Source: Thermoplasmatales archaeon SW_10_69_26
GTDB lineage: Archaea; Thermoplasmatota; SW-10-69-26
Assembly: GCA_003009755.1 (NCBI GenBank)
Contig: PXUB01000032.1
Location: forward strand, 65,408-129,407
Direction of reading: 5' to 3'
Length of the DNA stretch: 64,000 bases
Shown here piece by piece: positions 18,259 to 40,820 of the stretch; the first letter of the stretch is position 1; every line of letters begins with the position of its first letter. The notes beneath the pieces were generated by a model. That model was not told the DNA's origin. It ran no database searches and saw only the letters and a list, made by a program, of their open reading frames with translations. The translations under genes and the position numbers were made by a program.

Positions 18259-18286
18259 TAGCTTGACGGCCCGGCGGAAGACGCGA

Positions 18287-22344: not shown

Positions 22345-22652
22345 CGTGGATAGACCTTCCTCAGTACGTGCCTTAGGCTTGGCGGGTGGTTATACATTTC
22401 CCTCCGAGGGCGCGCAGGCGACCGCTATCCGTGGTAGGACGTGCCTAGGGACGTTCTCGGCGACCGGGAGCCTGGCATGGGTCTCCGGGGCGAGCGCGTT
22501 CGCGGTTCCTGGTGCAAGGGTTATACGGAACCGTCGGGCTCCCAGGCCGCGTGGGTCACGACCAGGTCGACCTCGACACGTTCCTGGAGGAGGGCATCCC
22601 CGAGCCCGCGGACCCGGGCGCGACCGGTGAGCCTTCCTACGTCAGCCACCCG

Positions 22653-24140
22653 ATGGTGGAGCCCGAGACGCTCGAGGAGCGCCCCTACCAGACCGAGCTG
22701 GCCGAGCAGGCCCACGGCCGTCGAACGCTGGTCGTGCTCCCGACCGGGCTCGGCAAGACGATGGTGGCGGCGTTGCTGGCCGCCGAGGTCCTGCAGAACC
22801 GCGAGGGCAAGGTCGTGTTCCTCGCCCCGACCCGGCCGCTGGTCCAACAGCACGAGGAGACCTTCGAGGAGCTGTTGCGCGCCCGGGACCAGGTCGCGCT
22901 CAGCGGCTCGGTCCCCGCCCAGCGTCGGGCCGAGCTCTTCGCGGAGAACCGGGTCATCTTCTCCACGCCCCAGGGCCTGCGCAACGATCTCGAGGCTGGG
23001 CTCGTCGACATCGACGACGTCGGCCTGCTGGTCTTCGACGAGGCCCACCGCGCCGTCGGCGACTACGCCTACGTCGACATCGGGCAACGCTACCGCTACG
23101 CCTGTCCCGAGGGCACCGTCCTCGGTCTCACCGCCTCCCCCGGCGGCGACGAGGAGCGCATCCAGGAGGTCGTCGACAACCTCGGCATCCACGAGATCCT
23201 CAGTCGCGACGCCGAGGACCCCAGCGTCAAGCCCTACGTCAAGGAGACGAAGGTCCGCTGGGTCAAGCTGCAGCTCACGCCTGTGATGGAGGCCGTGCAA
23301 GCCCGGCTGCAGAACGTCGTCGACGAGCGTGCCAAGCCCCTGAAAGAGGCCCGCTACCTCGAGCCCAAGCCCTACGTCTCCCGGACCGACGCGATCGAGG
23401 CCGGCAAGAAGATCCGGGCCGAGCTCGACGACGCCGAGAACAAGGGGCCGCTGTTCGGCATGTTGTTAAACCAGGGCGTCGTCATGCAGGCCCTGCACTG
23501 CCTCGAGCTCGTCGAGACGCAGGGTGTCGAGCCGTTGCAGACGTACCTCGCCCGCCTCATGCAGGACGAGGATCCCTCCCGCAGCGCGGAGGCCTTCGCC
23601 AAGGACCCCCAGGTCACGGACGTCTGGGCCCGCATCCAGGACTGGCCCCACCCCAGCCATCCCAAGATCGAGGCCTTGATCGAGACGTTGACCCGCGAGC
23701 TGGCCGACAACCCCGATGGCCTCGTCATCGTGTTCGCCCAGTACCGGGACACGATCAACTCGATCCTCGAAGCCCTCGAGGACGAGGGCATCGACGCCGA
23801 GAAGTTCGTCGGCCAGTCCGACCGCGACGGCGACGAGGGCATGAGTCAGGACGAGCAAAAGGAGGTGCTCGACCGCATGCGCGCCGGCGAGTTCCGCGTG
23901 CTCGTCGCCTCCAGCGTCGCCGAGGAGGGGCTGGACATCCCCAGCGTGGACCTCGTCGTGTTCTACGAGCCCGTGCCCAGCGAGATCCGGCTCATCCAGC
24001 GCCGCGGCCGCACCGGCCGCCAAAGCGTGGGCCGCATGGTCGTCCTCATCACCGAGGACACCCGCGACGAAGCCTTCATGCACGCCGCCATGAGCCGGGA
24101 GAAGAAGATGCGCCGCCTGGTCAAGGATCTGGGCGACTAG
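22653..24140 (+). CDS. Hef/FANCM-family DEAH-box helicase (helicase domains only)
   Basis: RPYQTELAEQA...LVVLPTGLGKTMVAALLAAE..., DEAH box FDEAHRAVGDYAY and helicase C (QRRGRTGRQ). Start at ATG 22653 by alignment to Hef N-termini; track ORF begins 22512. Confidence 0.75.
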   Translation: MVEPETLEERPYQTELAEQAHGRRTLVVLPTGLGKTMVAALLAAEVLQNREGKVVFLAPTRPLVQQHEETFEELLRARDQVALSGSVPAQRRAELFAENRVIFSTPQGLRNDLEAGLVDIDDVGLLVFDEAHRAVGDYAYVDIGQRYRYACPEGTVLGLTASPGGDEERIQEVVDNLGIHEILSRDAEDPSVKPYVKETKVRWVKLQLTPVMEAVQARLQNVVDERAKPLKEARYLEPKPYVSRTDAIEAGKKIRAELDDAENKGPLFGMLLNQGVVMQALHCLELVETQGVEPLQTYLARLMQDEDPSRSAEAFAKDPQVTDVWARIQDWPHPSHPKIEALIETLTRELADNPDGLVIVFAQYRDTINSILEALEDEGIDAEKFVGQSDRDGDEGMSQDEQKEVLDRMRAGEFRVLVASSVAEEGLDIPSVDLVVFYEPVPSEIRLIQRRGRTGRQSVGRMVVLITEDTRDEAFMHAAMSREKKMRRLVKDLGD

Positions 24141-24155
24141 ACTGCCGGACAGAAT

Positions 24156-24683
24156 GTGCGTAACTTATCGTGGCGTCCGATACTAACTCAAATAGGGGTG
24201 GGATGCCCTGTCAGCCTTGACGCTGACCCCGACCAAAAGGAACAACGACGCCTCGCCGCAGGCCAAGATCTACTGGACGGCAAACGCCAAGCCGACATCG
24301 CCGAAGGCTACGGCGCCACCCGCACCACCGCCCACCGCTGGGCGCACACCGTCGGAACCGAAGGCCTCGACGGCCTGAAAAGCACACGCACCAACGCCGG
24401 ACGACCCCCGAAACTCGACGCCGAGAACAAACAACGCCTCGCCGAACTTCTCCAACGAGGCGCCCAAGCCCACGGCTGGGACACCGATCTGTGGACCCGC
24501 AAACGTGTGGCCCAGCTGATCGACCGGGCGTTCGACGTCGACTACTCTCCCCGACACTGCTCGCGGATTCTGCACGAGATCGGGTTCCGCCCGGTCAAAC
24601 CCAAGCGCGTGGCCAACGAAAAGGACGAGGCCGAAAAACAGCGCTGGCTGGCCGAGGAGGCTGGAGAGCTGAAAAAAACCTAG
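24156..24683 (+). CDS. IS630-family transposase, N-terminal HTH part (orfA)
   Basis: Helix-turn-helix DNA-binding region ...GKRQADIAEGYGATRTTAHRWAH...; ends at TAG just after GCTGAAAAAAACC. Confidence 0.8.
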   Translation: MRNLSWRPILTQIGVGCPVSLDADPDQKEQRRLAAGQDLLDGKRQADIAEGYGATRTTAHRWAHTVGTEGLDGLKSTRTNAGRPPKLDAENKQRLAELLQRGAQAHGWDTDLWTRKRVAQLIDRAFDVDYSPRHCSRILHEIGFRPVKPKRVANEKDEAEKQRWLAEEAGELKKT

Positions 24684-25255
24684 CCGACGGTGCAACCGTC
24701 CTGTTCCCGGACGAGAGCACCTACCGCTTCACCCCCGTCCGCCAGCGCGGCTGGGCGCCCTACGGACAGCGACCGACCGTCGAGCACACCTACGGGGACT
24801 GGTGGACGGTGAGCGCGATCAGCGCCTTGGCGATCTGGATCGAGCCCGATGGCTCGTTAGGCACGAAGGTCTTCTTCCGGTTGTACCCGAAGGAGAGCGT
24901 GAACAGTCGACACCTCCGGGATTTCCTGCACCAGGTTCGCTACCAGCGCGAGGGCGAGATCAGCGTGGTGTGGGATCGCGCCAGCCATCACCGCGCCCGG
25001 CGGGTGCAGCGGTTCTTCGCTTCCTACGAGCGGTTCAGCTCGGTGTTGTTGCCGGCATATTGTCCAGAGTTGAACTCGGACGAGGGGGTGTGGAATTGGT
25101 CGAAGACCAAGGATCTGGCCAACGCCTGTCCGAAGGATGTGGATGCCCTGGTGTCGGGGGTTCGAGGGCCCTTGCGTCGGCTCCAGCATCGACCGAGTGC
25201 GCAGTGGTGGTGTGTGCACGACTCCGAGTTCCCGATCGAAGAGTTACTCACATAA
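24683..25255 (+). CDS. IS630-family transposase, DDE catalytic part (orfB, expressed by -1 frameshift at the A7 run 24672-24678)
   Basis: Frame continuing from the A7 run reads ...DESTYRFTPVRQRGWAPYGQRP...VVWDRASHHRARRVQRF...LLPAYCPELNSDEGVWNW... (DDE motif block of IS630/Tc1). Confidence 0.75.
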   Translation, partial: ADGATVLFPDESTYRFTPVRQRGWAPYGQRPTVEHTYGDWWTVSAISALAIWIEPDGSLGTKVFFRLYPKESVNSRHLRDFLHQVRYQREGEISVVWDRASHHRARRVQRFFASYERFSSVLLPAYCPELNSDEGVWNWSKTKDLANACPKDVDALVSGVRGPLRRLQHRPSAQWWCVHDSEFPIEELLT

Positions 25256-25266
25256 TGACCGGCAGT

Positions 25267-27048
25267 CTAACCGCTTTCGGTGGCGACCGAGAGGTCGCGG
25301 TCGAGCATCGCCCCCCACACCCCCCGCGGTGTCCGGCTGCAATCCGTGCACGCGAGATCGGGATCCTCGTACCGGTCACCGGTCCCGTCCCCGTCGACCA
25401 GCAACCCGTTCTCGCCGTTCCAGTCACCGTGCATGCAGGGGTCATCGCAGGCGAGGTCCTCCCCCACGGCGGCCCGGTAGGCGTCCACGCCCCCGAGGTC
25501 CACCAGCGAGGACCCCCAGCCGGCGGTCGCTCCACCGTTGGTCCCCCAAACGCCCGGGTAGGTCTCGCAGCGGGCTTGGCACAGCGCGTGGACGTCGACG
25601 CCGGCCTCGTAGACGTCATCGCCGCCGGCGTCCACCAGGCGTCCGACACCGAGGTGCCCTCCCCCGTTGGCCCCATGCCCTCCGGCGATGCTCAGGCATC
25701 GGCTGAGATGGGAGGCGTCGCCCAGACACTCGGTCGTGGCGTTCGTCCCGGCCTGGTACACGTCGTCGCCGTCCGAGGAGACGAGACTGCCCGAGCCGGA
25801 ATAGCCGCCGCCGTTCACGCCTAGGCCTCCGGCCACCGCCGAGCACTTGGACCCCTCGCAGGTGACCGATGCGTTGACGCCGGCGAGGAACGCGTCCTCG
25901 CCCCCGCCGTCGATCAGCGAACCAACGCCGACGTGGGCGCCGCCGTTGACGCCTGCGCTGCCGGCGCGGGCCACACAGAACTCCGCCTCGCACCGCTCCT
26001 CCGCCTCGTGCCCGGCGAGGTAGCGGTCGGTTCCCTCGCCTGCGTCGACGAGTAAGCCGATCCCGTTGTCCGCTCCGCCGTTGACGCCGCGTGCGTTCGC
26101 GTGGTAGGTGTCGTTGCCGGTGGCGTCCACGAGCACGCCCGTGCCCTCGAACCCGCCGCCGTTGACGCCACAGCACCGCGGATCGCTTGGCTGGCCGTAC
26201 GTGTCGTCGCCGCCGAGGTCCACGACCGCCGCGGCGGGGAACGTTGCGCCGGTGCCGCCGGCGTTGTTCTCGTACTCGTCGTCGCCTCCGAAGCTCACGA
26301 TGAGCGCGCAGTCGTTCGCAAACGTGCGGCTCTCGTCACTGGTGTCGAGGGCGACGGCAGGGCATGCGTCGACGGCCGGACGAGCCGCGGAGGTCGAAGA
26401 TTCCGCTACCATGGCCAAGTTCTCCACCGCATTCAGGAAAGCGGACCGAGCGGCGAAGACGTCGGCGAGTTCGCCGCCCTCGACGTGGGGGAAGGGATCG
26501 AGGCCCCCGTCGAAACCAGGAACCGCCCCCGTCCCGGCAGCTGGTGAAAGGCGAGCAGGGGAGGCTTGGTCGTCGGTGAGCTTTTTGGCCACGCTGGTAT
26601 CCGACACGGCCTCGAGCCGGAGGAACGTCGTGACGAGGTCGGCAAGCGCGTCCGCGAGACCCGGGGACCGTTGCTCGACGATCTGGGCGGCGAGGCGATC
26701 CCCGAGGTCGAGGATCGTCGCGTGGCGGTGGGTCAGGGATTCGAGGGCCGCGAACAAGGACGACGCCGAGCCCGTTGTCGGAGGTTCGTCCGACGGGATG
26801 CCGAGATCCCCGCTCTGCTGACGAGCCACGGCCTCGGCCACGTCCAGCGATGCAACAGCTGGAATCTCATCTTCGGTATCCGACGCGCCCTCGTCCGCGA
26901 TCCCGGCTCCGTGGGCGTCGCTCACCCTTTCCGGAACGAGGGTACCGGCCGCACTCGCCGCGGGAGCGAGGATCATCACAACAGCGAGGGCGACCGAAAC
27001 GCCCCTCAGCCGCCGAGCACGTTGGCCGAAAGAGAGGATATCCGTCAC
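25267..27048 (-). CDS. Secreted beta-solenoid repeat protein with about eight ~30-aa GVNGG repeats
   Basis: Signal peptide ...VSVALAVVMILAPAASAAG; repeats of form GVNGGxxxGxGxLVDxxGxDxYxAG; many Cys pairs; stop codon overlaps the TA target of the IS630 element. Confidence 0.65.
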   Translation of the reverse strand: MTDILSFGQRARRLRGVSVALAVVMILAPAASAAGTLVPERVSDAHGAGIADEGASDTEDEIPAVASLDVAEAVARQQSGDLGIPSDEPPTTGSASSLFAALESLTHRHATILDLGDRLAAQIVEQRSPGLADALADLVTTFLRLEAVSDTSVAKKLTDDQASPARLSPAAGTGAVPGFDGGLDPFPHVEGGELADVFAARSAFLNAVENLAMVAESSTSAARPAVDACPAVALDTSDESRTFANDCALIVSFGGDDEYENNAGGTGATFPAAAVVDLGGDDTYGQPSDPRCCGVNGGGFEGTGVLVDATGNDTYHANARGVNGGADNGIGLLVDAGEGTDRYLAGHEAEERCEAEFCVARAGSAGVNGGAHVGVGSLIDGGGEDAFLAGVNASVTCEGSKCSAVAGGLGVNGGGYSGSGSLVSSDGDDVYQAGTNATTECLGDASHLSRCLSIAGGHGANGGGHLGVGRLVDAGGDDVYEAGVDVHALCQARCETYPGVWGTNGGATAGWGSSLVDLGGVDAYRAAVGEDLACDDPCMHGDWNGENGLLVDGDGTGDRYEDPDLACTDCSRTPRGVWGAMLDRDLSVATESG

Positions 27049-27319
27049 GTCACCCAGCCTCGTTGCGGTGGTTGGGATGCAGCCCTTTCAAGGCTTCGTT
27101 GTCACAGCCCGAGGGGGAATCGCGTGCCGTCATCGAATGCGCTGGCGCACCCGCCATCCGGGCAGGGACGGTTCCGGGACGGCGTGTCCGCCGCCGACCA
27201 AGGCCGGGACAGCGGGGGCGATCATCAACAGGCCAACCAGGACGGCGCGGACCCTGACGAACATCGAGCAAGAAGGCTTAGCCGGACCCTATCAGGGTTC
27301 TCCGAGTGCGCCTAAACCG

Positions 27320-28705
27320 TCACTCTTCTCGTCCCTCGCCGCCGGGCACGTCCTCGGGCCCGATACCCAACAACCGCGGCAATGGATCGAACAGCGCCCG
27401 CTCAACCGTCGCCTGATCCACGGCCGCCTCCGAGGAACTACGCGTCCCGTTGTCCCGATGATCGTTGACCCCGTAGACACGGTACTCGTCATCCCCCGTG
27501 AGCTCGAAGCTCGTCCGCCAGGACGTCACACTCGGGTCCAGGTGCGCCACGGGTTGCCACGGGCTCGGGGCCTCGAACGTCGCGTTGGACCGGCGTTCGA
27601 CCACGTACCCCGTCAACACCGAATACGAGGTGGGTTTGGGCGGATCCCACGTGACCTCCGTGCTGAACGCATCGCCCTCGCGAACCGGTTCGACATCCAA
27701 ATCTCGGGGCGCGTTCGGCTCCAACGAGTAATGCACGATCTCCGCCAAATCCCCCCGCTCGAACGCCTGGGACCCGCCAAGCAGGATCGCTTGCCGGCCG
27801 GTCCACACGGCGGTCGCCTGGTCACGACCCGTGGGCAACCGGCTATCCATGAACCGGATCTCCTCCTCCCCCGGATCGACCCGCAGGATCGAGGCCTTGC
27901 TCACCCCGTCGTTGATCCCCCCAAGCACGAACGCGTGATGCCCATCCCACACGGCGCTCGGGGCCCGCAACGAAACGTTGAGCTTCACGTCCTGCAACTG
28001 AAGGGTGTCTGTATCGGGGTCGAAGCGCCAGATATCATCGCACTCGCCCGGGCAGCCAGTCCCCCCGAACAGGTAGGCCTCCTCGCCCGTCCACACCGAC
28101 GCCATCCTTTCACGCGGACCGGGGAAGCTCTCCTCCAGCTTCGTTACCGTATCGTTCACCGGATCATAGCGCAAAATCTGGTCCAGGGGAGTGAACGCGT
28201 CCCGGCCACCGAAGATGTAGGCGCGATCGCCGGTCCAGACCGTCGTCGCATCTATCGGATCGTTCGGTAGCGTGGCGTTCATTTCCTCGACCGTGTCCGT
28301 GGACGGGTCATACCGGGTCACGGTGTCCGTCCAGAACACGTACGCACAACCCTCGGGACAGCCTGCCTCCGGCCGCGAGCGATCATCCCACACCGCGGTC
28401 GCACTCGATCCCGTCCAGGGCAACCGGGCATCCATCACCGTCGCGTTGCCCGTATCCGGTTCGTAGCGAACGATCTCGTCACTGAAATCGCTGGACCCAC
28501 CAGTCCGGTTCAAACCCCCGAACACGTACACCGCCTCTCCCGTCCACACGGACGACGGGTTCTTCAACCCCTGCGGCAACTCGGCTTCGACGCTGGCCGT
28601 GTCCGCGCTCGCCGACGGCGCGATGAGGGCGACCACGGCCACGGCAGCCAACAAACCGACGCCGCCAGCGATCCAGGCACCTCCCATCGGTTCTCCCTCG
28701 AACAT
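27320..28705 (-). CDS. Secreted Kelch-repeat beta-propeller protein with C-terminal fibronectin-III-like domain
   Basis: Start chosen at MFEGEPMGGAWIAGGVGLLAAVAVVALIAPSASA; six Kelch-like repeats (VWTGxxAYVFGG pattern); C-terminal FN3-like ...PRDLDVEPVREGDAFSTEVTWDPP...YRVYGVND... Confidence 0.7.
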   Translation of the reverse strand: MFEGEPMGGAWIAGGVGLLAAVAVVALIAPSASADTASVEAELPQGLKNPSSVWTGEAVYVFGGLNRTGGSSDFSDEIVRYEPDTGNATVMDARLPWTGSSATAVWDDRSRPEAGCPEGCAYVFWTDTVTRYDPSTDTVEEMNATLPNDPIDATTVWTGDRAYIFGGRDAFTPLDQILRYDPVNDTVTKLEESFPGPRERMASVWTGEEAYLFGGTGCPGECDDIWRFDPDTDTLQLQDVKLNVSLRAPSAVWDGHHAFVLGGINDGVSKASILRVDPGEEEIRFMDSRLPTGRDQATAVWTGRQAILLGGSQAFERGDLAEIVHYSLEPNAPRDLDVEPVREGDAFSTEVTWDPPKPTSYSVLTGYVVERRSNATFEAPSPWQPVAHLDPSVTSWRTSFELTGDDEYRVYGVNDHRDNGTRSSSEAAVDQATVERALFDPLPRLLGIGPEDVPGGEGREE

Positions 28706-28855
28706 CGGCCAGGAGCCGCATAGACCCCCGCCTGTCACGTCCAATCGTAACACCGCCCTTGGCCAAAGGCATTCTCCAAGCGCGTGTGAACCGTCATCGA
28801 AGCCAAACCAAGCCCGAAGACAACTTATCACCAACTCAATTGGTCAATCGGGCTT

Positions 28856-29960
28856 GCACATAAACTCAGTTCTGACCTGACCGAGCGTCCCATCAATCCA
28901 ACAACCGAACGTTGTGCACGATCTCCCGCGCCAACACCGTGTTCCGCCGACTGGTCCGCAGCCGGCAGCGGAGACGATCGCCGAACAGCAGCTTGACCGT
29001 GGCAAACCGGGACTCCGCGGTCACCCGGCGACGGTACACGTCCTGAAACCGATTGGGGAAGTTGAGCGCGTATCGGGTCTTCTTCTCGAACGGATCGGAA
29101 GGGAACCGCCACCAGCGAGCGTTGCTCTTCGGCTTGAAGTAGGGCTGCAACCCGGCGTCTTTGACGAGCTGGCAGTTGTCCCGGGTCCAATACGCCTTGT
29201 CGCCCAACACGGCGTGGACGGCTGCTTCGTCAGGCACCTCGTCGATCAGCTCGGGCAGCTCTTGGCTGTCGTGCCGGTGCCCGGGCGTCAACGAGACAGC
29301 CAACGTGGCCCGGGTCTTGACGCCGTTGAGCACGTGCGTTTTGGCGTACTGGCGAGGCTCAGCGTCGTGTTCTCGCGCATGCCAGGCACCTTGTCCGGTG
29401 AGCACGAGACCCGAGGCATCCACGCTGGCGTTCTCTTCGAGGCTCCAGAAGGGCTGAGCGGTCTCCGCCAGCACTCGCTGAAGCGTGTTCGTGATCCCCG
29501 TTCTTGGTTGTACTGGCACAGCGTGTTGAAATGGGGCACGTGCTCGATGTCCAGATGGGGCTTGAGCAGGTAAAGCAGGCCTTCGGTGCGGCGGAAGCTG
29601 AGATCGAAGTACGCCCGGACCAGCAAGCCCAAGATGACGGTGCGGCGCGGGATCCGGGGCCGGCCGGTGTTGTAGGACCAGTTGTGGATGCAGCTGGCAT
29701 CCACGAGGTCTCGGAGACGGTGCACCACGCGCACCATCTCGCGGGCTTGCCACGTGTTGTATGTGCTCCAGTCGAAGCCGTTGTCGGTGGGTTCAAGCGT
29801 GTGCTGTTCTTCTGTTGTCACTCGGGCATCCATCCCAGCTCGATGGCTCTCGAGCGGGCTTCTCAGGGATGCCCCGTTTTGTCAACGGCAGTGGTTTGTA
29901 TCGCGTCAGCTGGGCTCGTAGCCCACTTTATGTGCGAGCCCCGGCCGAAGGCTGAGTTTC
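28856..29960 (-). mobile_element. IS4/IS5-superfamily insertion sequence, ends approximate
   Basis: DDE_Tnp_1-type transposase between short matching termini (left GCACATAAACTCAG at 28856-28869; right carries TTTATGTGC at 29926-29934 and CTGAGTTT at 29952-29959). The exact ends could not be resolved by eye. Confidence 0.55.
28893..29833 (-). pseudogene. IS4/IS5-superfamily DDE transposase split over two frames (frameshift near 29530-29600)
   Basis: N-terminal frame MDARVTTEEQHTLEPTDNGFDWSTYNTWQAREMVRVVHRL... ends about 29530. The C-terminal frame carries ...GDKAYWTRDNCQLVKDAGLQPYF...VYRRRVTAESRFATVKLLFG... (DDE and YRRR/ExxF signature). Confidence 0.7.
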
Positions 29961-30588
29961 AGGGATCGAACCCGACGGTGTAGCCCTTCTGTTCCAAGAT
30001 CTCCATCGCTTCGCTGGCGAGTTCTCGAGCCTCTTGCTCGTTTGGGACACCGTCGGCAAGCTGGGCATCCCATTCTTCTTGGACGCGCTCCCAGGAGATC
30101 AGGCCTTGGTCGAGAAGCGTCTGGAGATCCTCGATGTCGCGGTCGGGGGTATCCCGCCAGCGGCCGGTCACGCTCTTGAGCAAGAACACGGCGTTGGCTG
30201 GGGCTAGCTCGACGGTCAGGTTGCCCTCGGTGAACCACTCGTCTGTTGCCTCCGCCATGCGCTGGGAGAACTGCAGGCAACCGAAGATCCGTCCGGGCGG
30301 GAACAGATCCATGCTCATCACGTTCTCGCGCTCGCAGTAGATCCACATGTCGAAGGAATCGGTTAGCGGGATCTCCTCGGCCGGCTGGTAACCCACCCGA
30401 CCTAGCTCTTCGATGAGGGTGTGGATGGCCCGGTCGTGGTCGACGACGGCGTCCACGTCCTTGGTGGTGTCCTTGATGCCGCGGGCACTCATGCAGCAGC
30501 CGCCGAAGAGGATGAACCGCGTCGGTGCCTGGATGACCTCGCCGATCCGTTCGAGCTCGGTGCGGATCGTGGCGCGGTCAACGGGCAA
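29959..30588 (-). CDS. Polymerase-beta-superfamily nucleotidyltransferase (AbiEii-like motif), 209 aa
   Basis: NTase signature FILFGGCCMSARGIKDTTKDVDAVVD (hGG...G...T.DhDhhh) followed by a ~100-aa helical C-terminal extension; start overlaps the upstream wHTH gene by 11 bp; stop sits in the IS right end. Confidence 0.65.
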   Translation of the reverse strand: MPVDRATIRTELERIGEVIQAPTRFILFGGCCMSARGIKDTTKDVDAVVDHDRAIHTLIEELGRVGYQPAEEIPLTDSFDMWIYCERENVMSMDLFPPGRIFGCLQFSQRMAEATDEWFTEGNLTVELAPANAVFLLKSVTGRWRDTPDRDIEDLQTLLDQGLISWERVQEEWDAQLADGVPNEQEARELASEAMEILEQKGYTVGFDP

Positions 30589-31597
30589 GGCTGCCCTCCT
30601 CGACGCCGAAGTCCTCTCGGAACCGCTGGATCTCCTCCTCGAGGGGGTGCTCTCCGGTTTCGACGAACACCTTGGCTTCGTCCAAGAGCCCGCCGAGCTG
30701 GTAGAAGAACGCGCGATCGAAGAAGCTCTCGTGTCGGAGCAAGCGGTGGTCCACTGCAGCCAGGAAGAACGCCTTGGCTCTCAGGGCAACATCGTCGGCG
30801 CTGGAACCGGATGGATCCCGGCGGGGGGTTGCCTGGGCACGACAGTAGAGGAACATGTGATCCCAGGGGTCGAGCTCTCGGGGGCCCAGGTAGCCGTAGG
30901 TTGCCTCGCTCGCAATCGGGGAGAAGAGATCCAGATCCGAGGATGGACCCACGAGTTGGATCGGTGGTTCGAGATCGGCGTTGTTGAAGCGCCAGGCCAC
31001 CTCGAGGCCGCGCTGGTGGATGGGATGGTGAGCGAAGACTGCAGCTCGAACCGGGCCTTCCTGTTCTTCCAGCCCTCCCGGGTGGACCGCCTCGCTGGGC
31101 GGTCGGCGGTAGAGGTCGGCGTACTCCTCGATGAGCCATTGCAAACCGCTCAGGCGCGGGTTCGGTTCGAGGCCGCCCTCCGAGGAGAGCAGGAGGTTGC
31201 GGGAGCGCAGGTGGTCGATGGCGTCCTGCCAGGTCGACTTGTGGACGCCGACCAACTCGCGGGCGTCGGGATCACGGTGAGGATAGGGGAAGACGGTGAG
31301 CGCGGCCAAGTGGGTGGGTGCGGAGAGCTCATCCTCGAGGTTGGGTCGCTCGCTGAGGGCGTCCGCACATGCACTCGCCAGGTCGGCGTGGCGGGCGGTG
31401 AAGGTACGGTTGCGTTTGGCTCTCGATGCTTCCAGCAGGTTCAGCTCCTCGAGCTTGCGTACCCGCCGGTCGAGCGTCGACCGGGGGAGGAACTCGAGGT
31501 CCCGCAGCTGGAACCCGTCCGGGTCCGCTGCGGCGAGGATCCGGAGATCGCGGCCGTCGAGTGAGAAACGAACGGGGTTTCGCTTATCACTTGTCAC
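30578..31597 (-). CDS. Winged-helix DNA-binding protein with extended C-terminal domain (AbiEi-like partner of the nucleotidyltransferase)
   Basis: N-terminal wHTH ...LRILAAADPDGFQLRDLEFLPRSTLDRRVRKLEELNLLEA..., then a second predicted wH (...VHKSTWQDAIDHLRSRNLLL...) and a ~150-aa C-terminal domain; 3' end overlaps the NTase start. Confidence 0.6.
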   Translation of the reverse strand: MTSDKRNPVRFSLDGRDLRILAAADPDGFQLRDLEFLPRSTLDRRVRKLEELNLLEASRAKRNRTFTARHADLASACADALSERPNLEDELSAPTHLAALTVFPYPHRDPDARELVGVHKSTWQDAIDHLRSRNLLLSSEGGLEPNPRLSGLQWLIEEYADLYRRPPSEAVHPGGLEEQEGPVRAAVFAHHPIHQRGLEVAWRFNNADLEPPIQLVGPSSDLDLFSPIASEATYGYLGPRELDPWDHMFLYCRAQATPRRDPSGSSADDVALRAKAFFLAAVDHRLLRHESFFDRAFFYQLGGLLDEAKVFVETGEHPLEEEIQRFREDFGVEEGSLAR

Positions 31598-31856
31598 CGG
31601 TTGTTTCCAATCTCGATCAAAGACACTTAAGAGTTCCTCTGATTGGGTGCTTCACAAACGGGTTCACAGACGGTACCGGGAGAGGCGAGGTTCGCCTTTG
31701 GCGACACGCATCGGCGTAGTTCTCTGGATCTGCTTGCAGACGAAGCGGAGACAAGGTGAGTCCCACCTGCATCGTCGAGTAGCTCACGGCACGTAGCCGC
31801 ACCCGGCCTGGCTGGGGAAGAACGACATCTGCGATCCTGGGGGGAATCTTGGAGTC

Positions 31857-34800
31857 TCACGGTTCTGCGGCGTCCGCGGGCTCGGTCAACCACGGCAGGA
31901 TGTGGGCGCGACCGATGACGTCGTCGCAACCCGGGCTCGATGGACCCTGGGCACAACCCCACCAGTTCCGCCTCGCTTCGCCGCCCCCGACGAACCCGGC
32001 CTTCTCATTGCCAGCGATGTTGGAGTTCACTGCCTCCAGGTCGGAACCTCTTGCGTCGACGCCGACCGTGTTGTTGGAGATCTGCATGTGCTGCAGCTCG
32101 GGCTCCAGGATGCTCTGGTCGTTCTCGACCCCGGTAGCGAAACCTTCCACCTTGGTCTCGGTTACGGTGGTCAGCGTGGTTCCGGGGAGCGCGATCCCCG
32201 TTCGCCCGGTCCCGGAGACGACGGTCCCGTGGATCGAGGAGGAGTCCTGGAAGATGATCCCTGTGACGCCTTCGTAGACGATCCCCTGGCGAGCGTCGTC
32301 GATGTGGCTGTTCGAGACATCGATGTTGACCGTAGCCGCCGCTCGGAGGCCGACCTCTCCCTCTTTCACGGTGACGTTAGAGATCGACACGTGTTGGCCG
32401 CCGAGGACCTGGACGCCGACCCCGGTTTCCTCCAGCTCGATGTCCTCGACGATCGTGCGGTTGGTGTTCGCCAGGATGACCTGCCCTGGTGGGACTGGTT
32501 CGCCCTTGGACGTCGTCGGTGGCGGCACGAGGTTCCCGTCGCTGTCGCACCACACCTGTGGGATCACGGCATCTTGGGCGTCTTGACAGAAGAGGACGGG
32601 ACGGTCGTTGACGGTGTTGGCCCGCGTGATCGCCACGTCCGGGACATTCCAGCTGTCCGGCTCGAAGAAGATTCCCCCCTTCGTCATCGCGTTCGCGTCG
32701 ATCCTCGCTTGCTCGACGTCCTGGATCGCGATCGCCTTGGGGAACCCGTCGATGCCGTTCACCGCGATGGTGACGTTGTGGCTCCGTTCTGCTTGGAGTC
32801 CTCCGTCCTCGACCACGGGATACAGGGGGCTGTCAGATTCGTCCGCTGTTCGGTGGATCTCGTTTCCGCGGACGAGGACGTCCTCGGTTCGCTCCAGGGA
32901 CAGCCCTGTCCGTTGAGCCCGGAGGACGTTGTCCTCGACGTGGGCAGCGTCGACGTTCTCGAGGGCTACGGCGGTGCGGCCCTCGAGGTTGGTTCCCTCG
33001 AGGCGGACGTCCTGGCTGTCGACGATCTGGATGGGTACAGCTCCATCCTCGATCTGGAGCCCCCTCACGGTGACGTTCTCGGTACCTTCGAGCACGACCT
33101 GACCGTAACCGGGACGGACGGTTCGGTTGTCCTCGCCGGCCAGGTAGGCGACGGGGCGTCCGCGGACCGTGTTGGAGCGGTCGATATCGTGACCGTTCTC
33201 CGCATGCCCCCAGAGACCGTCCTCGATGCGGAACCCGGCGTCGGTAAGGCGGTTCCGTTGAAGTTGGAGCTGGTCCCCGTCGAGCATGATCCCGGTCTCG
33301 TTCGCCTCGACCGTGTTCTCTCGGACGGCGTACTGCTCGCCGCCGAGAAGCATCCCGACGTGGGAACCATCGACCAAGTTGTCGACGGCGCGACTCCGTT
33401 CGCCCGCGAGGAGCACGATCCCGTGAGTGCCTCCCTGGACGGAGGTGTTCGCGACCGTGACGTTGCGGCCAACGGCTAGGACGCCGCCCAGGGGATCCCC
33501 TTCCCCGGGCATGCGAACATCAGCACTGCGGATAGAGCCCCGCTGGTCCGGGGCGTCGCCAGCGACGCCTACGGCTGGTTGAAGGACACCGCCGATACCG
33601 TGCAGGAGGCGGATCCCGAGATCCGAGACGTTGATCTCGACATTCACGAACTCCACGCCATCACCGCCGATGGCGCTCAGGCCTCGCCAACCGCCGGTGA
33701 CGCTGACGTTGCGGACGGTCACGTTGTCGGTTTTGAAGGTCTGCACGCCGACCGTGGTGGGGCCGAGCTCGCGGTTCTCGATGACGGTGTCCGAGACGTT
33801 GACGAGGATGATCTGGCCGGCTGGCCCCTCCGGGCTCGCCGAGCTTGTGTCGGTGACGTAGCGGATGGGATCGCCGTTGACGGTGTTCGAGGGAGGGATC
33901 TCGTGGGACCCCGCCGAGCGGTACCCCTCGAGATGGACACCGGTTTCCTGGAACTCGTTCCGGTAGAGCGAGGCGTTGTCCGCCGAGGAGAGCCGAAGCC
34001 CGACGTCGGCGCCGCGGAGCCGGTTGTCCTTCAAGACGATCCCGTCGGACGAGGTGTGAATCCCGACCTCGGTCGCCTCGATCGTGTTGTTGTGGATTTT
34101 GGGGGTGTCCGTCCCCCGCAGCTGGATCCCGTGACGGGCCTCGAGGATTTTGTTCCGACTCAAGGACGTACCGGGAGAGGGCCAGACGAGGTCCACCCCC
34201 TGGTCGACGTTCTCGATGGTGTTCCCCTCGGCCTTCATTGTGGCGTCCCTCGCTCTCAACCCGACCGACCAGTTGACCAGCTGGTTCGCCTCGAACACCG
34301 CGGTTGCACCAACGGCGACACTGAGGGCTGTCCCCGAGGGGAACCCACGGTCGGGGGGAGAACGGCCCAAGAGCGTGTTGTTCTTGGCCACGAGCGTGGC
34401 GGAGCCTCCAGCAGCGAGGCCGTCTTCCTTCCACCCCGGGCGGATCTCGGTGCCGGTCACGATCGCTTCGCTGGCTCCGATGGAGATGGGGCCGTCGACC
34501 CGGCTTCGAGTGACGTTGAGCGAGGAGTCCGTGGTGACGATAGCTCCTTCCGCCTTCACGGCTGTCAGGTTCACCGAGGCCTGTGTTGCGGTGATGCCCG
34601 CAGAGAACGAGCCGGCCACGCTGTCGAGGGAGGCGTTGGTGACGGAGACCGAGGTCCGCGTCCGCTCGTCGGTCCATCCGTCGAGGACGATGCTGCCGCC
34701 GCCGTGAACGCGCAGGCCCTCGTGGGCGTCGCCCACCTTGTTGTCGGTGAGCTCGGCGGAGGCGTCCGTTTCGAGAGCGGTACGGGCGGAGCGGATCTGG

Positions 34801-35810
34801 TTCTGAGTGAACGCTCGGATCTCCGAGTCGAGGATGCGGAATCCGTCGGGGCCGGGGCGGTGGGGAAGCGGCGTTCCGACAAGGTTGGCCTGGACGTCCA
34901 GTCCGTTGATGCGTTGGAGGTCCATGGCCACGGCTGGGTCCTCGCCGTAGCAACACAGGGTGGTCGGGTAGGACACCGTGTTCGCTTCGATTATCACGTT
35001 CGAAGCGTTCGTGACCGAGAGGGCCTGGAAGCTCCGCTCGAACCTGTTGTCGGCGACGTGGAGGTGATCGCTTCCTTCTGCCTCCAGGCTAGGCGGTGGT
35101 GGCGTATCACGAGCGGCGAAGTCGTCGACGGACCCTGGCAGGGGGGAAAACGCCATCTCGTCCTGGGGGAGGATACGGTTATCCTGGATCGTGATGTTCG
35201 TGGCGTTGGCGAGGAACACCGTCGTCGGTCGGGCCTTGCGGCCGGCATCCTCGGGTGAAGGTTCGCCGCCGATGCGATTGTCTTGGAGGACGACGTGGGC
35301 GTCCGTGTCCTCGACCCTGATGCTCGTCACGTTCCAGCCCGCGATCAGATAGGGATCCTCGGAGGTGCCCTCGCCGTCGACCACGCCCGAGCCAGGCCGG
35401 TAGGTGGATTCCCCGGTGAGCGGTTCGCGGAGCTCGAATCCCTGTCGAGGCTGGTCGCCATCGATTGTGATGGGTGGATGATGGGGTCGCTGGGCGTGAT
35501 CAACGGGCTTAGTTCCTGCTTCGTCCGCGCCGAGGCTGGAGGGACAGCGTGCGGGAGGCTCGCATCGGTTGAAGGTGTGGGCCGAGGCGGGCTCCTCTCT
35601 GGGGAGAGCCTCGAAGTTGGGGGATGGTTGGGTGTCGATGCGGTCCTCCGTGTGGAGGATGCCACGTTCTGCTTGATCGAGGGTGGGAAAGCCCGCTGCC
35701 GCGTTCTGTAGGAAGAGACCGAAGGCGAGGAGGGCCCCCATGCAGGCGAGCGAAGCGGGGATCGGTCGTGTACGCCTGGGGAAACACATGGCCACGGGCG
35801 GCTGGCTCAC
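31857..35810 (-). CDS. Giant secreted right-handed parallel beta-helix (PbH1/NosD-like) repeat protein, 1317 aa
   Basis: Signal peptide ...MGALLAFGLFLQNAAAG; dozens of ~22-aa repeats of the pattern NxIxxNxxxGIxL / VxNNTIxxxxxG across the whole length; acidic C-terminus. Confidence 0.75.
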   Translation of the reverse strand: MSQPPVAMCFPRRTRPIPASLACMGALLAFGLFLQNAAAGFPTLDQAERGILHTEDRIDTQPSPNFEALPREEPASAHTFNRCEPPARCPSSLGADEAGTKPVDHAQRPHHPPITIDGDQPRQGFELREPLTGESTYRPGSGVVDGEGTSEDPYLIAGWNVTSIRVEDTDAHVVLQDNRIGGEPSPEDAGRKARPTTVFLANATNITIQDNRILPQDEMAFSPLPGSVDDFAARDTPPPPSLEAEGSDHLHVADNRFERSFQALSVTNASNVIIEANTVSYPTTLCCYGEDPAVAMDLQRINGLDVQANLVGTPLPHRPGPDGFRILDSEIRAFTQNQIRSARTALETDASAELTDNKVGDAHEGLRVHGGGSIVLDGWTDERTRTSVSVTNASLDSVAGSFSAGITATQASVNLTAVKAEGAIVTTDSSLNVTRSRVDGPISIGASEAIVTGTEIRPGWKEDGLAAGGSATLVAKNNTLLGRSPPDRGFPSGTALSVAVGATAVFEANQLVNWSVGLRARDATMKAEGNTIENVDQGVDLVWPSPGTSLSRNKILEARHGIQLRGTDTPKIHNNTIEATEVGIHTSSDGIVLKDNRLRGADVGLRLSSADNASLYRNEFQETGVHLEGYRSAGSHEIPPSNTVNGDPIRYVTDTSSASPEGPAGQIILVNVSDTVIENRELGPTTVGVQTFKTDNVTVRNVSVTGGWRGLSAIGGDGVEFVNVEINVSDLGIRLLHGIGGVLQPAVGVAGDAPDQRGSIRSADVRMPGEGDPLGGVLAVGRNVTVANTSVQGGTHGIVLLAGERSRAVDNLVDGSHVGMLLGGEQYAVRENTVEANETGIMLDGDQLQLQRNRLTDAGFRIEDGLWGHAENGHDIDRSNTVRGRPVAYLAGEDNRTVRPGYGQVVLEGTENVTVRGLQIEDGAVPIQIVDSQDVRLEGTNLEGRTAVALENVDAAHVEDNVLRAQRTGLSLERTEDVLVRGNEIHRTADESDSPLYPVVEDGGLQAERSHNVTIAVNGIDGFPKAIAIQDVEQARIDANAMTKGGIFFEPDSWNVPDVAITRANTVNDRPVLFCQDAQDAVIPQVWCDSDGNLVPPPTTSKGEPVPPGQVILANTNRTIVEDIELEETGVGVQVLGGQHVSISNVTVKEGEVGLRAAATVNIDVSNSHIDDARQGIVYEGVTGIIFQDSSSIHGTVVSGTGRTGIALPGTTLTTVTETKVEGFATGVENDQSILEPELQHMQISNNTVGVDARGSDLEAVNSNIAGNEKAGFVGGGEARRNWWGCAQGPSSPGCDDVIGRAHILPWLTEPADAAEP

Positions 35811-36049
35811 GGTTCCGCCTCCGAGTCGGGCTCGGCCAACCCTGATTCGACCAAGACGTTCCCCTCGATACCGTCTCCGCTGGTCGAGAGACCGTTCACG
35901 GAGGCCAGCCCTGTGCTGGGAACCGGAATCAGGGTGATGGCAACGGTGAGCGTCAGGCTGCGCAGCTCCTCCTGCCTCGGACGTCCAATCGTGACAGCCG
36001 ACTCAAAAGCGTGTGGATAGAACCGAAGGGGTAGAACCGGCTCGGACAC
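35807..36049 (-). CDS. Hypothetical small protein (80 aa) overlapping the start of the giant beta-helix gene by 4 bp
   Basis: ORF MSEPVLPLRFYPHAFESAVTIGRPRQEEL...AEPDSEAEP; ATGA overlap suggests coupling but there is no recognisable domain. Confidence 0.25.
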   Translation of the reverse strand: MSEPVLPLRFYPHAFESAVTIGRPRQEELRSLTLTVAITLIPVPSTGLASVNGLSTSGDGIEGNVLVESGLAEPDSEAEP

Positions 36050-36119
36050 CGTACGACGGTCGCCGACGGTATGCGAGAGGTCGGCTGCCCTCGCCCTCCT
36101 CCAGCGGGTGTTACACCAG

Positions 36120-37345
36120 CCTAGTGCTTCTCAGCTTGTGTCAGTAGTACCGGGCCACTCCGAACTGAACTCACATCCCGGGGTTCTGTAGCTGTCTCAG
36201 CCAGACGGAGCCCATTTGGTCTTCAAGGCCTCTAGCGGCTATCTCCGGCCCCTTCATCGCTTCAGCCGTCACGATCGCTTCGAGCGACAAAAGTCCGTGG
36301 TGGAGGGCCTTGTTGTCGCTAGTTCCTCTCCCAACTGAGAGACGTTTAGAACCTCGCCCACACCCCTCCACCGCCCGTCTCCCTGGGCATGACCGATGAG
36401 TTGCCCAGCCTGACCGAATTCGTCAACACCCACCCCACCGAAGACGACTGCCGGCAATACTCCGCGAGAAACGCTGGGGCGAGGACGGCTTTGAATGCCT
36501 ACACTGCGGAGAAGACGAACACTGGGGCTTCATCGAAACGCGCCACCTGTTCCAGTGCCACGAGTGCGGCAAGCAAACCAGTGTGACCGCGGGCACGATC
36601 CTGCAGGACACCAAGCTCGACCTGCAGACCTGGTTTTTGGCGATCTACCACGTCATCAAAACCAAGAAGGGCATCACGGAGCCCGAGCTCGCCCGCACGC
36701 TCGGCGTGCACGCGGAGACCGCGCACAACATCCGCCAGAAGATCTACCGCATCCTGAGACGCGCGCAACACCGGCCGTTAACCGGCGTGGTCGAGGCCGA
36801 TGAAACCTACGTCGGCGGCAAGCGCCCCGACGATCCCAGCGGCCGGGGCACCACGAAACAGTGCGTGGTCGCCCTCGTCGAGAACAAAGACGAGGAAGCC
36901 GGCAACCTGCACCTGCAATGCGTGCCCGGCGCCGGCGGCGAGAACCTGGCCCCCACCGTGCGAGCCCGCGTGCAGGAAGGCTCGATGTTGTGGACGGACA
37001 ACGGGGACGGCTACAACGGGCTTGCGGCCTACGAGCGCGAGGTTCGCCAACCCGACGACGATCAGGAGATGCACGACGTGCTGCCGTGGAGTCACCGGTG
37101 TTCAGCAACCTCAAACGCGTGCTGTACGGGGTGCACGCCTACGTGGAGAACTGGAACGTGCAGCCGTACTTGGACGCGTTCACGTTCCGCTTCAACCACC
37201 GCCCGTTCCTCGGCAAGGCCCTCGAGAAGGCCTTGCAAGGCATCGTTGAGACTCTTCCTCGACCGAACGATCGGCTCAAACGATCCGGGCAGCTGGGGGC
37301 AGCGGCGTAGAGGGGGTTACTGAGACACCCCGAGAAGCACTTAGC
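36120..37345 (+). mobile_element. IS1595-family insertion sequence (about 1.2 kb)
   Basis: Terminal IRs CTAGTGCTTCTCAGCTTGTGTCAGTAGTACC (36120-) and the reverse complement of ...GGTTACTGAGACACCCCGAGAAGCACTTAG (-37345); encloses an IS1595-type transposase. Confidence 0.6.
36389..37310 (+). pseudogene. IS1595-family transposase with two frameshifts (near 36465 and 37085)
   Basis: Zn-ribbon region RWGEDGFECLHCGEDEHWGFIETRHLFQCHECGKQTSVTAGTILQDTKL... and the C-terminal signature ...FSNLKRVLYGVHAYVENWNVQPYLDAFTFRFNHR... are found in three different frames. Confidence 0.7.
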
Positions 37346-37471
37346 CCGGAAGGCCGCTAGCGCCTCCCGGGGGCCGATCGCTGGGCGCGACACCGCGTCG
37401 CACCGGCCGGGCAACGCTTTTATCCTGGACCAGGGTTGGAGACGTTGCCGCGATTCTGCGGCGCTCACCGT

Positions 37472-37544
37472 GGCCCGCGTAGGGTAGTGGTCATCCTCAC
37501 GGCTTGTGGAGCCGTGGAGGCGGGTTCGACTCTCGCCGCGGGCC
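37472..37544 (+). tRNA. tRNA-His (anticodon GTG) with encoded G-1
   Basis: Hand-folded: G-1 then acceptor GCCCGCG/CGCGGGC, anticodon stem CACGGC/GCCGTG with loop TTGTGGA (GTG), T-arm GCGGG-TTCGACT-CTCGC, discriminator C pairing with G-1. Confidence 0.8.
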
Positions 37545-37774
37545 CTCACTTCGACCCTCCGCAGGTTCTCCCATCGATCGAGCTCCGAACAGAGGGCCTC
37601 AGGGTCGTGCTCTGAGGGGAGGCGACCGGAACCTGAGCGCGTCTCGGCGAGCCGACCGGCTCGGCCGGCGGGCGCGTTGCTCGGCGTAGGGGTCCGCGTG
37701 GGCACGAAGGAACGGGTTGCCCAGCGATCGCTGGCGGTGGGCGCTCGACGCGTTCATCGTCGCTCCCCAGCTCC

Positions 37775-37978
37775 TCACGTCCGCGCGAACACGACCGTCG
37801 TCTCCCCGTCCCGGTGGAGCGGGACGGGCGCGTAGTCGCTCGGGTCGAAGGCGTAGCCACCGCCCCTGCCGGCGTCGACGTGGTCGCAGATGCGCAGCCG
37901 CAACCAGGCCTTGCGGACGTGGTCGACGGCGGCCTCCGCGTCGACGGTGGGCTCGCGGTCGTCGCGGGTATCGATCAT
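37775..37978 (-). CDS. Hypothetical small acidic protein (67 aa); a tandem paralogue lies upstream but is disrupted
   Basis: MIDTRDDREPTVDAEAAVDHVRKAWLRLRICDHVDAGRGGGYAFDPSDYAPVPLHRDGETTVVFART. An upstream copy (about 38037-38171) with the same DHVRxxWLRxR...RGGG...P.P...DGET pattern needs a frameshift in a C5 run and ends at an in-frame TAG. Confidence 0.3.
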   Translation of the reverse strand: MIDTRDDREPTVDAEAAVDHVRKAWLRLRICDHVDAGRGGGYAFDPSDYAPVPLHRDGETTVVFART

Positions 37979-38324
37979 CGTCGGCTCACCATCCCCCTCG
38001 TGAACCTCGGAGACCTTGAAGCACCTCTAGCGATCCTCGAAGACGCTGGCCTTCCTCCCGCTGATCTTCGCGAAGGCGAACCCGGTCTCGCCGTCCTCCT
38101 CGACGGGGATCGGCTGGTACTCGCAGATCCCAGCCACAACCCCCGCCGCGCTCCGTCTCGAGCATCGACATCACCCGGTCACGCAGCCACGTGCGCCGGA
38201 CGTGATCGCCCCCGTCGGGGCTGGGAGGCTCGGAGAGGGGGCCGCGGGGCTCGTCACCGGACGCCGGCGGGTCGGGCGCGCGCTCATCGTGACCACACGA
38301 GGGTCTCCTCGCCCAGGCACTTGA

Positions 38325-40493
<2,169 letters not shown>

Positions 40494-40499
40494 GTTGCT

Positions 40500-40640
40500 C
40501 GGCTGATCCGGAAGTCCGCTCGCTCCACCGCTTCGGGGGTCGCTTGCGTCCTTCCGGATGCCGGACGAACGCTCGACGTTGCGGGTCTCGCGTTCGTCCT
40601 CTCCGCAGACCGGCCTCTCCAGCGGCATGCCGGTCTGCGG
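40500..40640 (+). other. Three consecutive perfect stem-loops between the gyrB stop and the gyrB 3' remnant
   Basis: TCCGGAAG...CTTCCGGA, GGACGAACGC...GCGTTCGTCC and CCGCAGACCGG...CCGGTCTGCGG, each 8-11 bp stems. Confidence 0.55.
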
Positions 40641-40641
40641 A

Positions 40642-40744
40642 CCAAGCCGAGCAGCTGTTCGACGTGCTCATGGGTGACGAGGTGGAGCCTCGCCGCGAGT
40701 TCATCATGGAGCACGCGGATGAGGTCCAGGTGCTGGACGTTTGA
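40642..40744 (+). pseudogene. Diverged duplicate of the last 34 codons of gyrB (3' gene remnant)
   Basis: Encodes [33 protein letters not shown] versus gyrB ...[33 protein letters not shown]. The first 33 nt are identical; after that mostly synonymous substitutions (about 88% nt identity). Confidence 0.8.
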
Positions 40745-40820
40745 CGACTGAACCTCATCCGATGCATCCGCGCAGGCTGGAGCCCGAAGCCTCAAGCCGG
40801 TCGGAGGGCCTCGCGAGTCC

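Follow-up and report, generated by a model that had tools for sequence, protein, structure and literature searches.

How did some 13 kb of DNA with a foreign composition come to lie between a helicase gene and the tRNA-His gene of a salt-crust archaeon, and do its neighbours there, a tRNA gene and three insertion sequences (ISs), reveal the means by which it arrived? The DNA in question occupies positions 24141-37341 of a 64-kb stretch of contig PXUB01000032.1 (below, the window: the whole stretch analysed, numbered from its first letter). Its host, SW_10_69_26, is an uncultured, high-GC Thermoplasmatales archaeon of salt-crust/hypersaline origin represented by a metagenome-assembled genome (MAG). 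The window has a GC content of 69%, and among its genes are those for archaeal LonB and AglB and for a Hef-like helicase, whose named homologues belong to the Thermoplasmatota. The cargo of the island consists of five genes, encoding a 593-aa beta-solenoid protein, a Kelch protein, a winged helix-turn-helix (wHTH) protein paired with a small nucleotidyltransferase (NTase), and a 1317-aa beta-helix protein. A preliminary description of the stretch had placed an island with these features between an IS630 and an IS1595 element next to tRNA-His, and all of them are present as judged from Pfam matches, ARAGORN and inverted repeats. It is proposed, as the probable explanation, that the region is a mosaic, replacement-type flexible genomic island seated where a spacer prone to recombination separates the helicase gene from tRNA-His/gyrB.

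The helicase–tRNA-His–gyrB spacer and its content in relatives

Synteny was taken from a protein search with the helicase, which returned orthologues from contigs of metagenomes or MAGs at identities of 98, 85, 76 and 69%, and from a comparison of the neighbourhoods of these genes. A contig scan of genomes with the helicase yielded only relatives at 35-40% identity that were of no use for synteny, and exact-protein lookups of the helicase and of the paralogue P0122 gave no match, probably owing to different gene-call starts. The helicase gene of L010 (69%) is followed by 90 bp, tRNA-His on the plus strand, a 73-aa gene and gyrB. In L008 and L009 (76%) it is followed by one unrelated ORF (open reading frame), tRNA-His on the minus strand and gyrB, and in L006 (85%) by 940 bp of non-coding DNA, tRNA-His on the minus strand, an IS630-type end and the end of the contig. 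L007, with a helicase that is 98% identical as protein and 97.5% as DNA, is colinear with the window up to 24140, the last base of the helicase stop codon, and then switches to unrelated genes of 159, 41 and 498 aa and to a fragment, at the contig end, that is 90% identical to the interior of the IS1595 element in the window. The 498-aa product is a signal-bearing beta-helix protein encoded on the opposite strand; it shares the N-terminal GTSEDPY and the C-terminal NWWG...PWL motifs with the 1317-aa protein, and the two are otherwise alike at 36% identity over 108 aa only. None of the cargo proteins of the window was detectable by tblastn in the L006-L010 loci, and three relatives lack the cargo at the helicase–tRNA-His–gyrB locus. 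This locus is a hotspot with content that varies even between strains that probably belong to one species: the same core-gene interval holds different genes in the close strain L007, as in a replacement-type island, of which two versions are known so far. The preliminary description had named one finding that would speak against acquisition, the same gene order conserved without ISs across related species; the order of the island genes is not conserved in these relatives.

The cargo is compositionally foreign. The GC content at third codon positions (GC3) of the cargo genes is 0.79-0.83 as compared to 0.916±0.028 in 33 core genes (Mann-Whitney p=1.4e-5), and their log-likelihood under core codon usage is lower, with the same p value of 1.4e-5. 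When 4-kb windows are compared to the rest of the window, tetranucleotide correlations are 0.88-0.93 within the island and 0.96-0.99 outside; within it, the dinucleotide delta* is about doubled and GC is down to 63-66%. The deviation is common to all five cargo genes and is seen in oligonucleotide signature as well as in GC3. Each of the comparisons with the flanks suggested in the preliminary description (GC content, codon usage and tetranucleotide signature) sets the island apart.

The spacers of the relatives have features of their own. The 337/348-aa gene in the spacer of L008/L009 was considered as a relative of the 593-aa gene and rejected, the two being unrelated by tblastn; the 3' half of this gene looks out of frame. 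The non-coding spacer of L006 (11600-12500) contains direct repeats of ~190 bp (...GACGCGACCGAAGG...GGACCGAGGCAGGATGCCTG...).

Table 1. Features of the island and its flanks, in window coordinates. ORFs were taken from a GC3-based screen and Pfam; within 24100-37600, the scan covered the plausible ORFs among all those of at least 140 aa.
Feature	Position	Strand	Basis
Hef/FANCM-like helicase gene (left core flank)	22512-24140	+	Pfam DEAD, Helicase_C, RNA_helicase_helical
IS630-family element	~24141-25267	+	HTH_33 and DDE_3, inverted repeats
593-aa ORF, predicted secreted beta-solenoid	25267-27048	-	no Pfam match
Kelch beta-propeller protein, 504-aa ORF	27320-28834	-	Pfam Kelch 5e-19
IS5-like element	28850-29941	-	DDE_Tnp_1, 15-nt inverted repeats
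wHTH/NTase cassette	29936-31609	-	extent from L012 DNA identity
209-aa NTase ORF	29959-30588	-	weak DUF6036 match
339-aa double-wHTH ORF	30578-31597	-	no Pfam match; overlaps 209-aa ORF by 11 nt
1317-aa beta-helix protein	31857-35810	-	Pfam Beta_helix 4e-47, NosD 1e-40
80-aa ORF upstream of beta-helix gene	35807-36049	-	no domain
IS1595-family element	36123-37341	+	DDE_Tnp_IS1595, 24-nt inverted repeats
tRNA-His(GTG) (right core flank)	segment 37407-37574, tRNA 37473-37545	+	ARAGORN
gyrB (core)	38433-40493	+	Pfam; synteny in L008 and L010

Insertion sequences, tRNA-His and the origin of the island

All three IS elements found fall within the 13-kb island, the rest of the window being without a systematic transposase screen, and their families were confirmed by tblastn against annotated IS630, IS5 and IS1595 transposases on plasmids. 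The IS630 element has what defines its family, namely a helix-turn-helix domain with a DDE_3 domain, terminal inverted repeats and a duplicated TA on both sides. Its ORF1 (HTH_33, 1.5e-20) spans 24156-24683 and its ORF2 (DDE_3, 1.8e-22) 24491-25255, and the imperfect inverted repeats of 38 nt lie at 24133-24170 and 25237-25274. Removal of the element in silico yields ...GAC TAA CCGC..., in which the TAA of the helicase gene and the TAG of the 593-aa gene on the opposite strand share 2 nt; because its removal restores these overlapping stop codons, IS630 landed in a pre-existing helicase/593-aa junction. It is a simple late TA insertion and no marker of the origin of the island. A run of seven A residues (24672-24678) is located exactly at the overlap of ORF1 and ORF2, which stand in a -1 relation, and judging from this sequence, programmed frameshifting or transcriptional slippage probably yields the transposase, which would then not be decayed; the element is probably intact and active.

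IS630 sequences also occur outside the island. Two non-coding elements of ~370-430 bp, flanked by TA and bearing IS630 termini (TAGACTGCCGG...), lie at 17834-18260 and 41193-41563 and look like IS630-derived miniature inverted-repeat transposable elements (MITEs), and an IS630 terminus follows tRNA-His at the contig end of L006 (12718-12773). These MITE derivatives in the window, together with the inverted repeat in L006, argue that IS630 is native to the lineage.

The transposase of the IS5-like element (DDE_Tnp_1, 1e-16) is frameshifted into ORFs at 28893-29753 and 29288-29833. The inverted repeats of this element, of 15 nt, lie at 28850-28864 and 29927-29941, and no target duplication (3-4 bp for the IS5 family) is visible beside it. 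The ISXO2-like transposase of the IS1595 element (DDE_Tnp_IS1595, 2e-15) is likewise broken by frameshifts. Inverted repeats of 24 nt bound the element at 36123-36146 and 37318-37341, and no 8-bp target duplication is seen, as the flanks ACCAGCCT and TAGCCCGG differ. The frame of the neighbouring 80-aa ORF (GC3 0.73) stays open to 36130, within the IS1595 end, and its C-terminus (...AEPDSEAEP) resembles that of the 1317-aa protein (...TEPADAAEP); IS1595 may have interrupted a gene of which this ORF is the remaining 3' part. Both the missing duplications and the open frame would fit deletions or rearrangements that were associated with the ISs and followed their insertion. The preliminary description had counted three IS families with decayed transposases: the families hold, and the IS5-like and IS1595 transposases are broken, whereas that of IS630 is probably intact. 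It had also set IS1595 about 125 bp from tRNA-His; the element does adjoin the tRNA gene and ends 131 bp before it.

tRNA-His is located in the helicase–gyrB spacer of every relative whose contig reaches it, including three without the cargo, and ~65 bp upstream of it, including a TTTTAT box, are conserved with it. The whole segment of ~170 bp has the same orientation in L010 (11613-11746, blastn) and is inverted with respect to the helicase gene and gyrB in L006 (12508-12675), L008 (8815-8981) and L009 (8180-8295). The only inverted repeats in the window that could account for the inversion are a weak 18-nt pair of 78% identity. The neighbour of tRNA-His on the right, gyrB, is conserved. Its 3' end (40389-40493), stop codon included, recurs as a direct duplicate of ~105 bp at 40640-40744, ~150 bp past the real gyrB stop and roughly 90% identical to the real end; the duplicate has the appearance of a scar left by an earlier site-specific integration or by a gene-end duplication.

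Four other accounts of the island have to be weighed. It might be an artefact, a chimera of metagenomic assembly joined at shared IS copies, since the source is a MAG, ISs stand at the edges and the composition differs. This is most improbable, as independent Logan and ENA assemblies reproduce 27775-38489, including the IS1595–tRNA-His–gyrB junction, at 100% identity. The Logan contig (SRR6651951) covers 28597-36208, and the ENA contig covers the entire stretch from the Kelch gene through IS5, the cassette, the beta-helix gene, IS1595 and tRNA-His to the start of gyrB. On the left, IS630 joins its flanks cleanly and with a TA duplication, which argues for a genuine junction there, and the same MAG carries paralogues of the 593-aa gene on other contigs. 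Delivery by the flanking ISs, in which the cargo would have moved in one or several transposition units of the composite or one-ended type, is unlikely, if less so than the other three accounts. It would fit the presence of all three IS elements found within 13 kb, the missing target duplications of the IS5-like and IS1595 elements, the L012 cassette homology (described below) that stops at the IS5-like inverted repeat, and the L007 variant that also ends in an IS1595 fragment. The ISs, however, are each of a different family, which excludes a composite transposon formed by any two of them; the island as a whole is not flanked by a duplication, two of the transposases are broken, and IS630, with its own TA duplication, is younger than the junction in which it sits.

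A decayed integrative element that entered at tRNA-His and then lost its integrase and att sites is very unlikely, and this reading is already weakly refuted. The coding space of the island is entirely filled by ORFs, none of which is an integrase (among those of at least 140 aa scanned in 24100-37600), and the left boundary is the stop codon of the helicase gene, with no att-like repeat. The island lies 5' of tRNA-His in SW_10_69_26, at lower coordinates, and its cargo is a mosaic. Furthermore, no piece of tRNA-His of at least 12 nt recurs on either strand of the 64-kb window, in which three chance 11-mers are all that is found; the partial direct repeat that the preliminary description had envisaged at the far end is thus absent at this length. 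These observations are set against the adjacency of island and tRNA gene, the inversion of the tRNA segment between relatives, by which the site is seen to rearrange, the variable DNA on the 3' side of the tRNA gene in L006, L008 and L009, and the duplicate of the gyrB end with its hint of past site-specific integration nearby. Finally, the region could be ancestral and lost in the relatives, its odd composition reflecting low expression or relaxed selection. Such a history, which we regard as quite unlikely, gains from the compact junction in which the stops of the 593-aa and helicase genes overlapped, from the 593-aa paralogues in the same genome, and from the frequency of atypical composition in surface-protein genes. 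It does not sit well with the joint deviation of all five cargo genes in GC3 and oligonucleotide signature, with the short spacer shared by relatives at 69-85% helicase identity, with the different genes, rather than a deletion, in the 97.5% strain L007, or with the independent existence of the cassette elsewhere.

The mosaic, replacement-type island would on the favoured reading have been assembled in several steps. The 593-aa family and the beta-helix proteins would have been drawn from a Thermoplasmatota pangenome or accessory gene pool and the DUF6036 cassette from the mobilome of hypersaline archaea, with entry either via recombination within the flanks, which are conserved, or by a rearrangement that was illegitimate or associated with ISs. 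The IS5-like and IS1595 elements without target duplications are as expected after IS-mediated deletion or recombination. ISs may have accumulated where insertions were tolerated, with IS630 being the last to insert, by ordinary TA-target transposition. The cargo is at least partly modular, in that the wHTH/NTase cassette occurs alone elsewhere. Three predicted secreted solenoid/propeller proteins without a C-terminal membrane anchor could constitute a strain-distinct set that binds to or acts on glycans or other extracellular targets, and virus-driven diversification of these predicted extracellular proteins is conceivable. By analogy to AbiE and MenT, the wHTH/NTase pair might act as a toxin–antitoxin or defence module that stabilises the region. 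Of the horizontal acquisition put forward in the preliminary description, the accessory nature and foreign composition stand, and the tRNA- or IS-mediated mechanism is not supported.

Several points weigh against this reading. The 593-aa gene deviates least in composition (total GC 0.69), and as its stop overlapped that of the helicase gene before the arrival of IS630 it could be an older resident than the rest. The left junction of helicase gene, IS630 and 593-aa gene is known from the MAG contig alone. The mismatches between the helicase genes of L007 and the window are evenly spread with no enrichment near the island, and hence no recombination tract is visible. Moreover, the secretion of the cargo proteins is predicted from their N-terminal sequence only. 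No relative was found with the same cargo at the same locus, and because of this the direction of the event, gain here versus loss elsewhere, rests on composition.

The cargo proteins and the flanking genes

The 593-aa protein is 100% identical to BRD56_08715 and is composed of a signal-like N-terminus with an arginine pair (RR), a helical bundle at residues ~63-217 and a beta-solenoid at 225-583. The solenoid repeat is ~27 residues long, with the pattern GxNGGGxxxGxGxLxDxxGxDxYxA in the family, and includes Cys-pair loops. An AlphaFold model with a mean predicted local distance difference test score (pLDDT) of 83 and a predicted template modelling score (pTM) of 0.85 has the same order of parts, a helical bundle and after it a long beta-solenoid. 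The family numbers at least 850 homologues, the named ones mostly from Thermoplasmatota, two of them paralogues from other contigs of this MAG itself (46% and 33% identity), and no Pfam domain was found for the repeat region across the homologues. The protein is 16% identical to region IV of the Marinomonas primoryensis ice-binding adhesin (PDB 3p4g). RTX-type Ca2+ beta-rolls are built on a nonapeptide repeat, unlike the ~27-residue unit with Cys-pair loops and the N-terminal helical bundle of the 593-aa protein, and both Ca2+ binding and adhesion can be put forward by analogy only.

The Kelch protein is 455 aa long by the gene call in an independent assembly, and its true start is likely to give a product of ~455 aa with the signal peptide MGGAWIAGGVGLLAAVAVVALIAPSASA. 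Its fn3 match is weak (E=0.002, below the cutoff), leaving a C-terminal fibronectin type III-like (FN3-like) domain as a possibility.

The 1317-aa protein is a right-handed parallel beta-helix with three internal modules and the C-terminal NWWG...PWL motif. A word-indexed protein search with it returned itself only, and the matches from a metagenome scan were confined to the NWWG motif. Like the NosD-like/PbH1 beta-helix proteins it matches Beta_helix and NosD in several modules, although it scores far below the cutoff of the NosD family TIGR04247 (82 vs 300 bits) and there are no nos genes near its gene; a role as N2O-reductase maturation factor was rejected on these two grounds. PADLOC and PHROGs gave nothing for the cargo but generic Kelch matches.

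All three of these large proteins begin with hydrophobic signal-like segments, preceded by RR in two of them, and their C-terminal tails are acidic and non-hydrophobic; in four core proteins of the window a C-terminal hydrophobic helix with a basic tail can be seen. The PGF-CTERM models of NCBIfam match neither the cargo nor these core proteins. In the preliminary description the island was said to encode three giant secreted proteins and to serve in adhesion. Three predicted secreted proteins are there, of which a single one exceeds 1000 aa and merits the adjective. The GVNGG-repeat beta-solenoid is borne out by the family repeat and the model, and the Kelch propeller by its Pfam match, whereas the FN3 domain is doubtful. 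The lack of a hydrophobic tail in the cargo is confirmed, the likeness of the core tails to PGF-CTERM being one seen by eye. Adhesion as the role of the island is a fold-level analogy only, the beta-solenoid folds being like those of adhesins or lyases.

The wHTH/NTase pair is the part of the cargo with the clearest history of its own. Another metagenome contains a 2-kb contig, L012, with DNA that matches exactly 29936-31609 at 90% identity, from 12 bp upstream of the start of the 339-aa ORF to 23 bp past the stop of the 209-aa ORF, amid unrelated flanks. Because only the pair is shared, it is taken to be a self-contained mobile cassette. The NTase gene of L012 itself (1139-1758) is frameshifted, with two tblastn segments and a gene call of 165 aa, and this copy may be inactivated. 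The 209-aa protein carries, as read from its translation, the pol-beta NTase signature FGG-x12-DVD. Its match to Pfam DUF6036 is sub-threshold (E=0.002), and its membership of that family follows from full-length similarity: homologues annotated as DUF6036 on 59 haloarchaeal plasmids share 30-37% identity over 94-98% of its length (tblastn). In both of the two plasmids inspected the DUF6036 gene is preceded by an overlapping gene for a ~310-aa 'MarR family' protein, and a profile of the 339-aa family aligns over its full length with this haloarchaeal partner (hhalign probability 87.7%, E=3e-6). A wHTH–DUF6036 pair appears to be common to plasmids of Halobacteria and chromosomes of Thermoplasmatota. 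The AlphaFold 2 model of the 339-aa protein (pLDDT 88.6) comprises two winged helices and a C-terminal alpha/beta domain. The family of this protein is rare, with 15 clusters among 1.84 billion representatives; Pfam assigns none of the 15 members to a family, and no match was obtained in viral and metagenome scans with the protein or its family, where the alignment was not too divergent for scanning. The literature searched held no mention of DUF6036.

The arrangement of the pair is reminiscent of the AbiE system, in which the wHTH antitoxin AbiEi accompanies the NTase toxin AbiEii, and of MenAT, which share an upstream wHTH gene overlapping a downstream gene for a small pol-beta NTase and are likewise found as mobile two-gene units on plasmids. 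The 339/209 pair has this layout, with its 11-nt overlap, wHTH folds and G[GS]...DxD motif. The best PDB sequence match of the NTase is a toxin of the AbiEii/AbiGii family (8an4), at a weak E=0.19; by Pfam, NCBIfam and PADLOC the pair has no match to AbiEi/AbiEii (DUF1814), and the NTase belongs to DUF6036. It is possible, though we put it forward tentatively and consider it rather less probable than its opposite, that two parts of the cargo are undescribed systems rather than passengers, the wHTH/DUF6036 pair being a new toxin–antitoxin or defence module and the family of the 593-aa protein a new one of Ca2+-type beta-solenoid exoproteins. If this is true, the strain-level turnover would mark the 593-aa family as a target of virus- or environment-driven selection.

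Some features of the flanks deserve mention. A 67-aa gene (37775-37978, minus strand) on the 3' side of tRNA-His is conserved in L010 as the 73-aa gene, and a second, apparently frameshifted copy lies ahead of gyrB at ~38030-38290 (minus strand). gyrB is not followed by gyrA in the window (38433-41562), L008 or L010; a cytidylyltransferase-like gene and then LonB come next instead. ARAGORN also called a 96-nt 'tRNA-???' with a 2-nt anticodon at 57053-57148, inside a 580-aa ORF (55974-57716) with a core-like GC3 of 0.94; the call is probably a false positive, or else an odd intron-bearing tRNA overlapping an ORF artefact.

Comparison with known systems

With tRNA-associated islands and integrative elements the island shares its adjacency to a tRNA gene, its foreign composition and its absence from relatives. 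It differs from them in lacking both an integrase and an att direct repeat, in its position on the 5' side, and in that the tRNA gene is fixed also in genomes free of the cargo. It differs from a composite transposon in that the flanking ISs are not alike (IS630 and IS1595, with the IS5-like element inside) and no outer target duplication is present. Thus tRNA adjacency and IS elements are insufficient to infer acquisition by an integrase or a transposon. For annotation, a large repeat family without Pfam domain, that of the 593-aa protein, gains a structural assignment, and the wHTH and DUF6036 genes are recognised as a conserved pair that haloarchaeal plasmids carry as well.

The closest described parallel, going by what Martin-Cuadrado et al. 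(2015, PMC4535781) relate of it, is the cell-wall-associated flexible island of Haloquadratum walsbyi, where strains differ in their sets of surface proteins at one locus and the diversity is attributed to homologous recombination and mobile elements (PMC4535781). The SW_10_69_26 island is much smaller (13 kb) than the island portrayed there, is without S-layer or glycosylation biosynthesis genes and belongs to an uncultured Thermoplasmatales host rather than to a haloarchaeon; it is represented by two versions so far, and the surface location of its products is predicted. In that account and in the present case alike, a single locus between conserved genes, of atypical composition and with mobile elements, holds differing sets of surface or secreted proteins in co-occurring strains of hypersaline archaea. 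The strain-level turnover of predicted exposed proteins, known from Haloquadratum and marine bacteria, is hereby met in an uncultured Thermoplasmatales archaeon of salt crusts, at a hotspot pinned to a defined spacer between the helicase gene, tRNA-His and gyrB.

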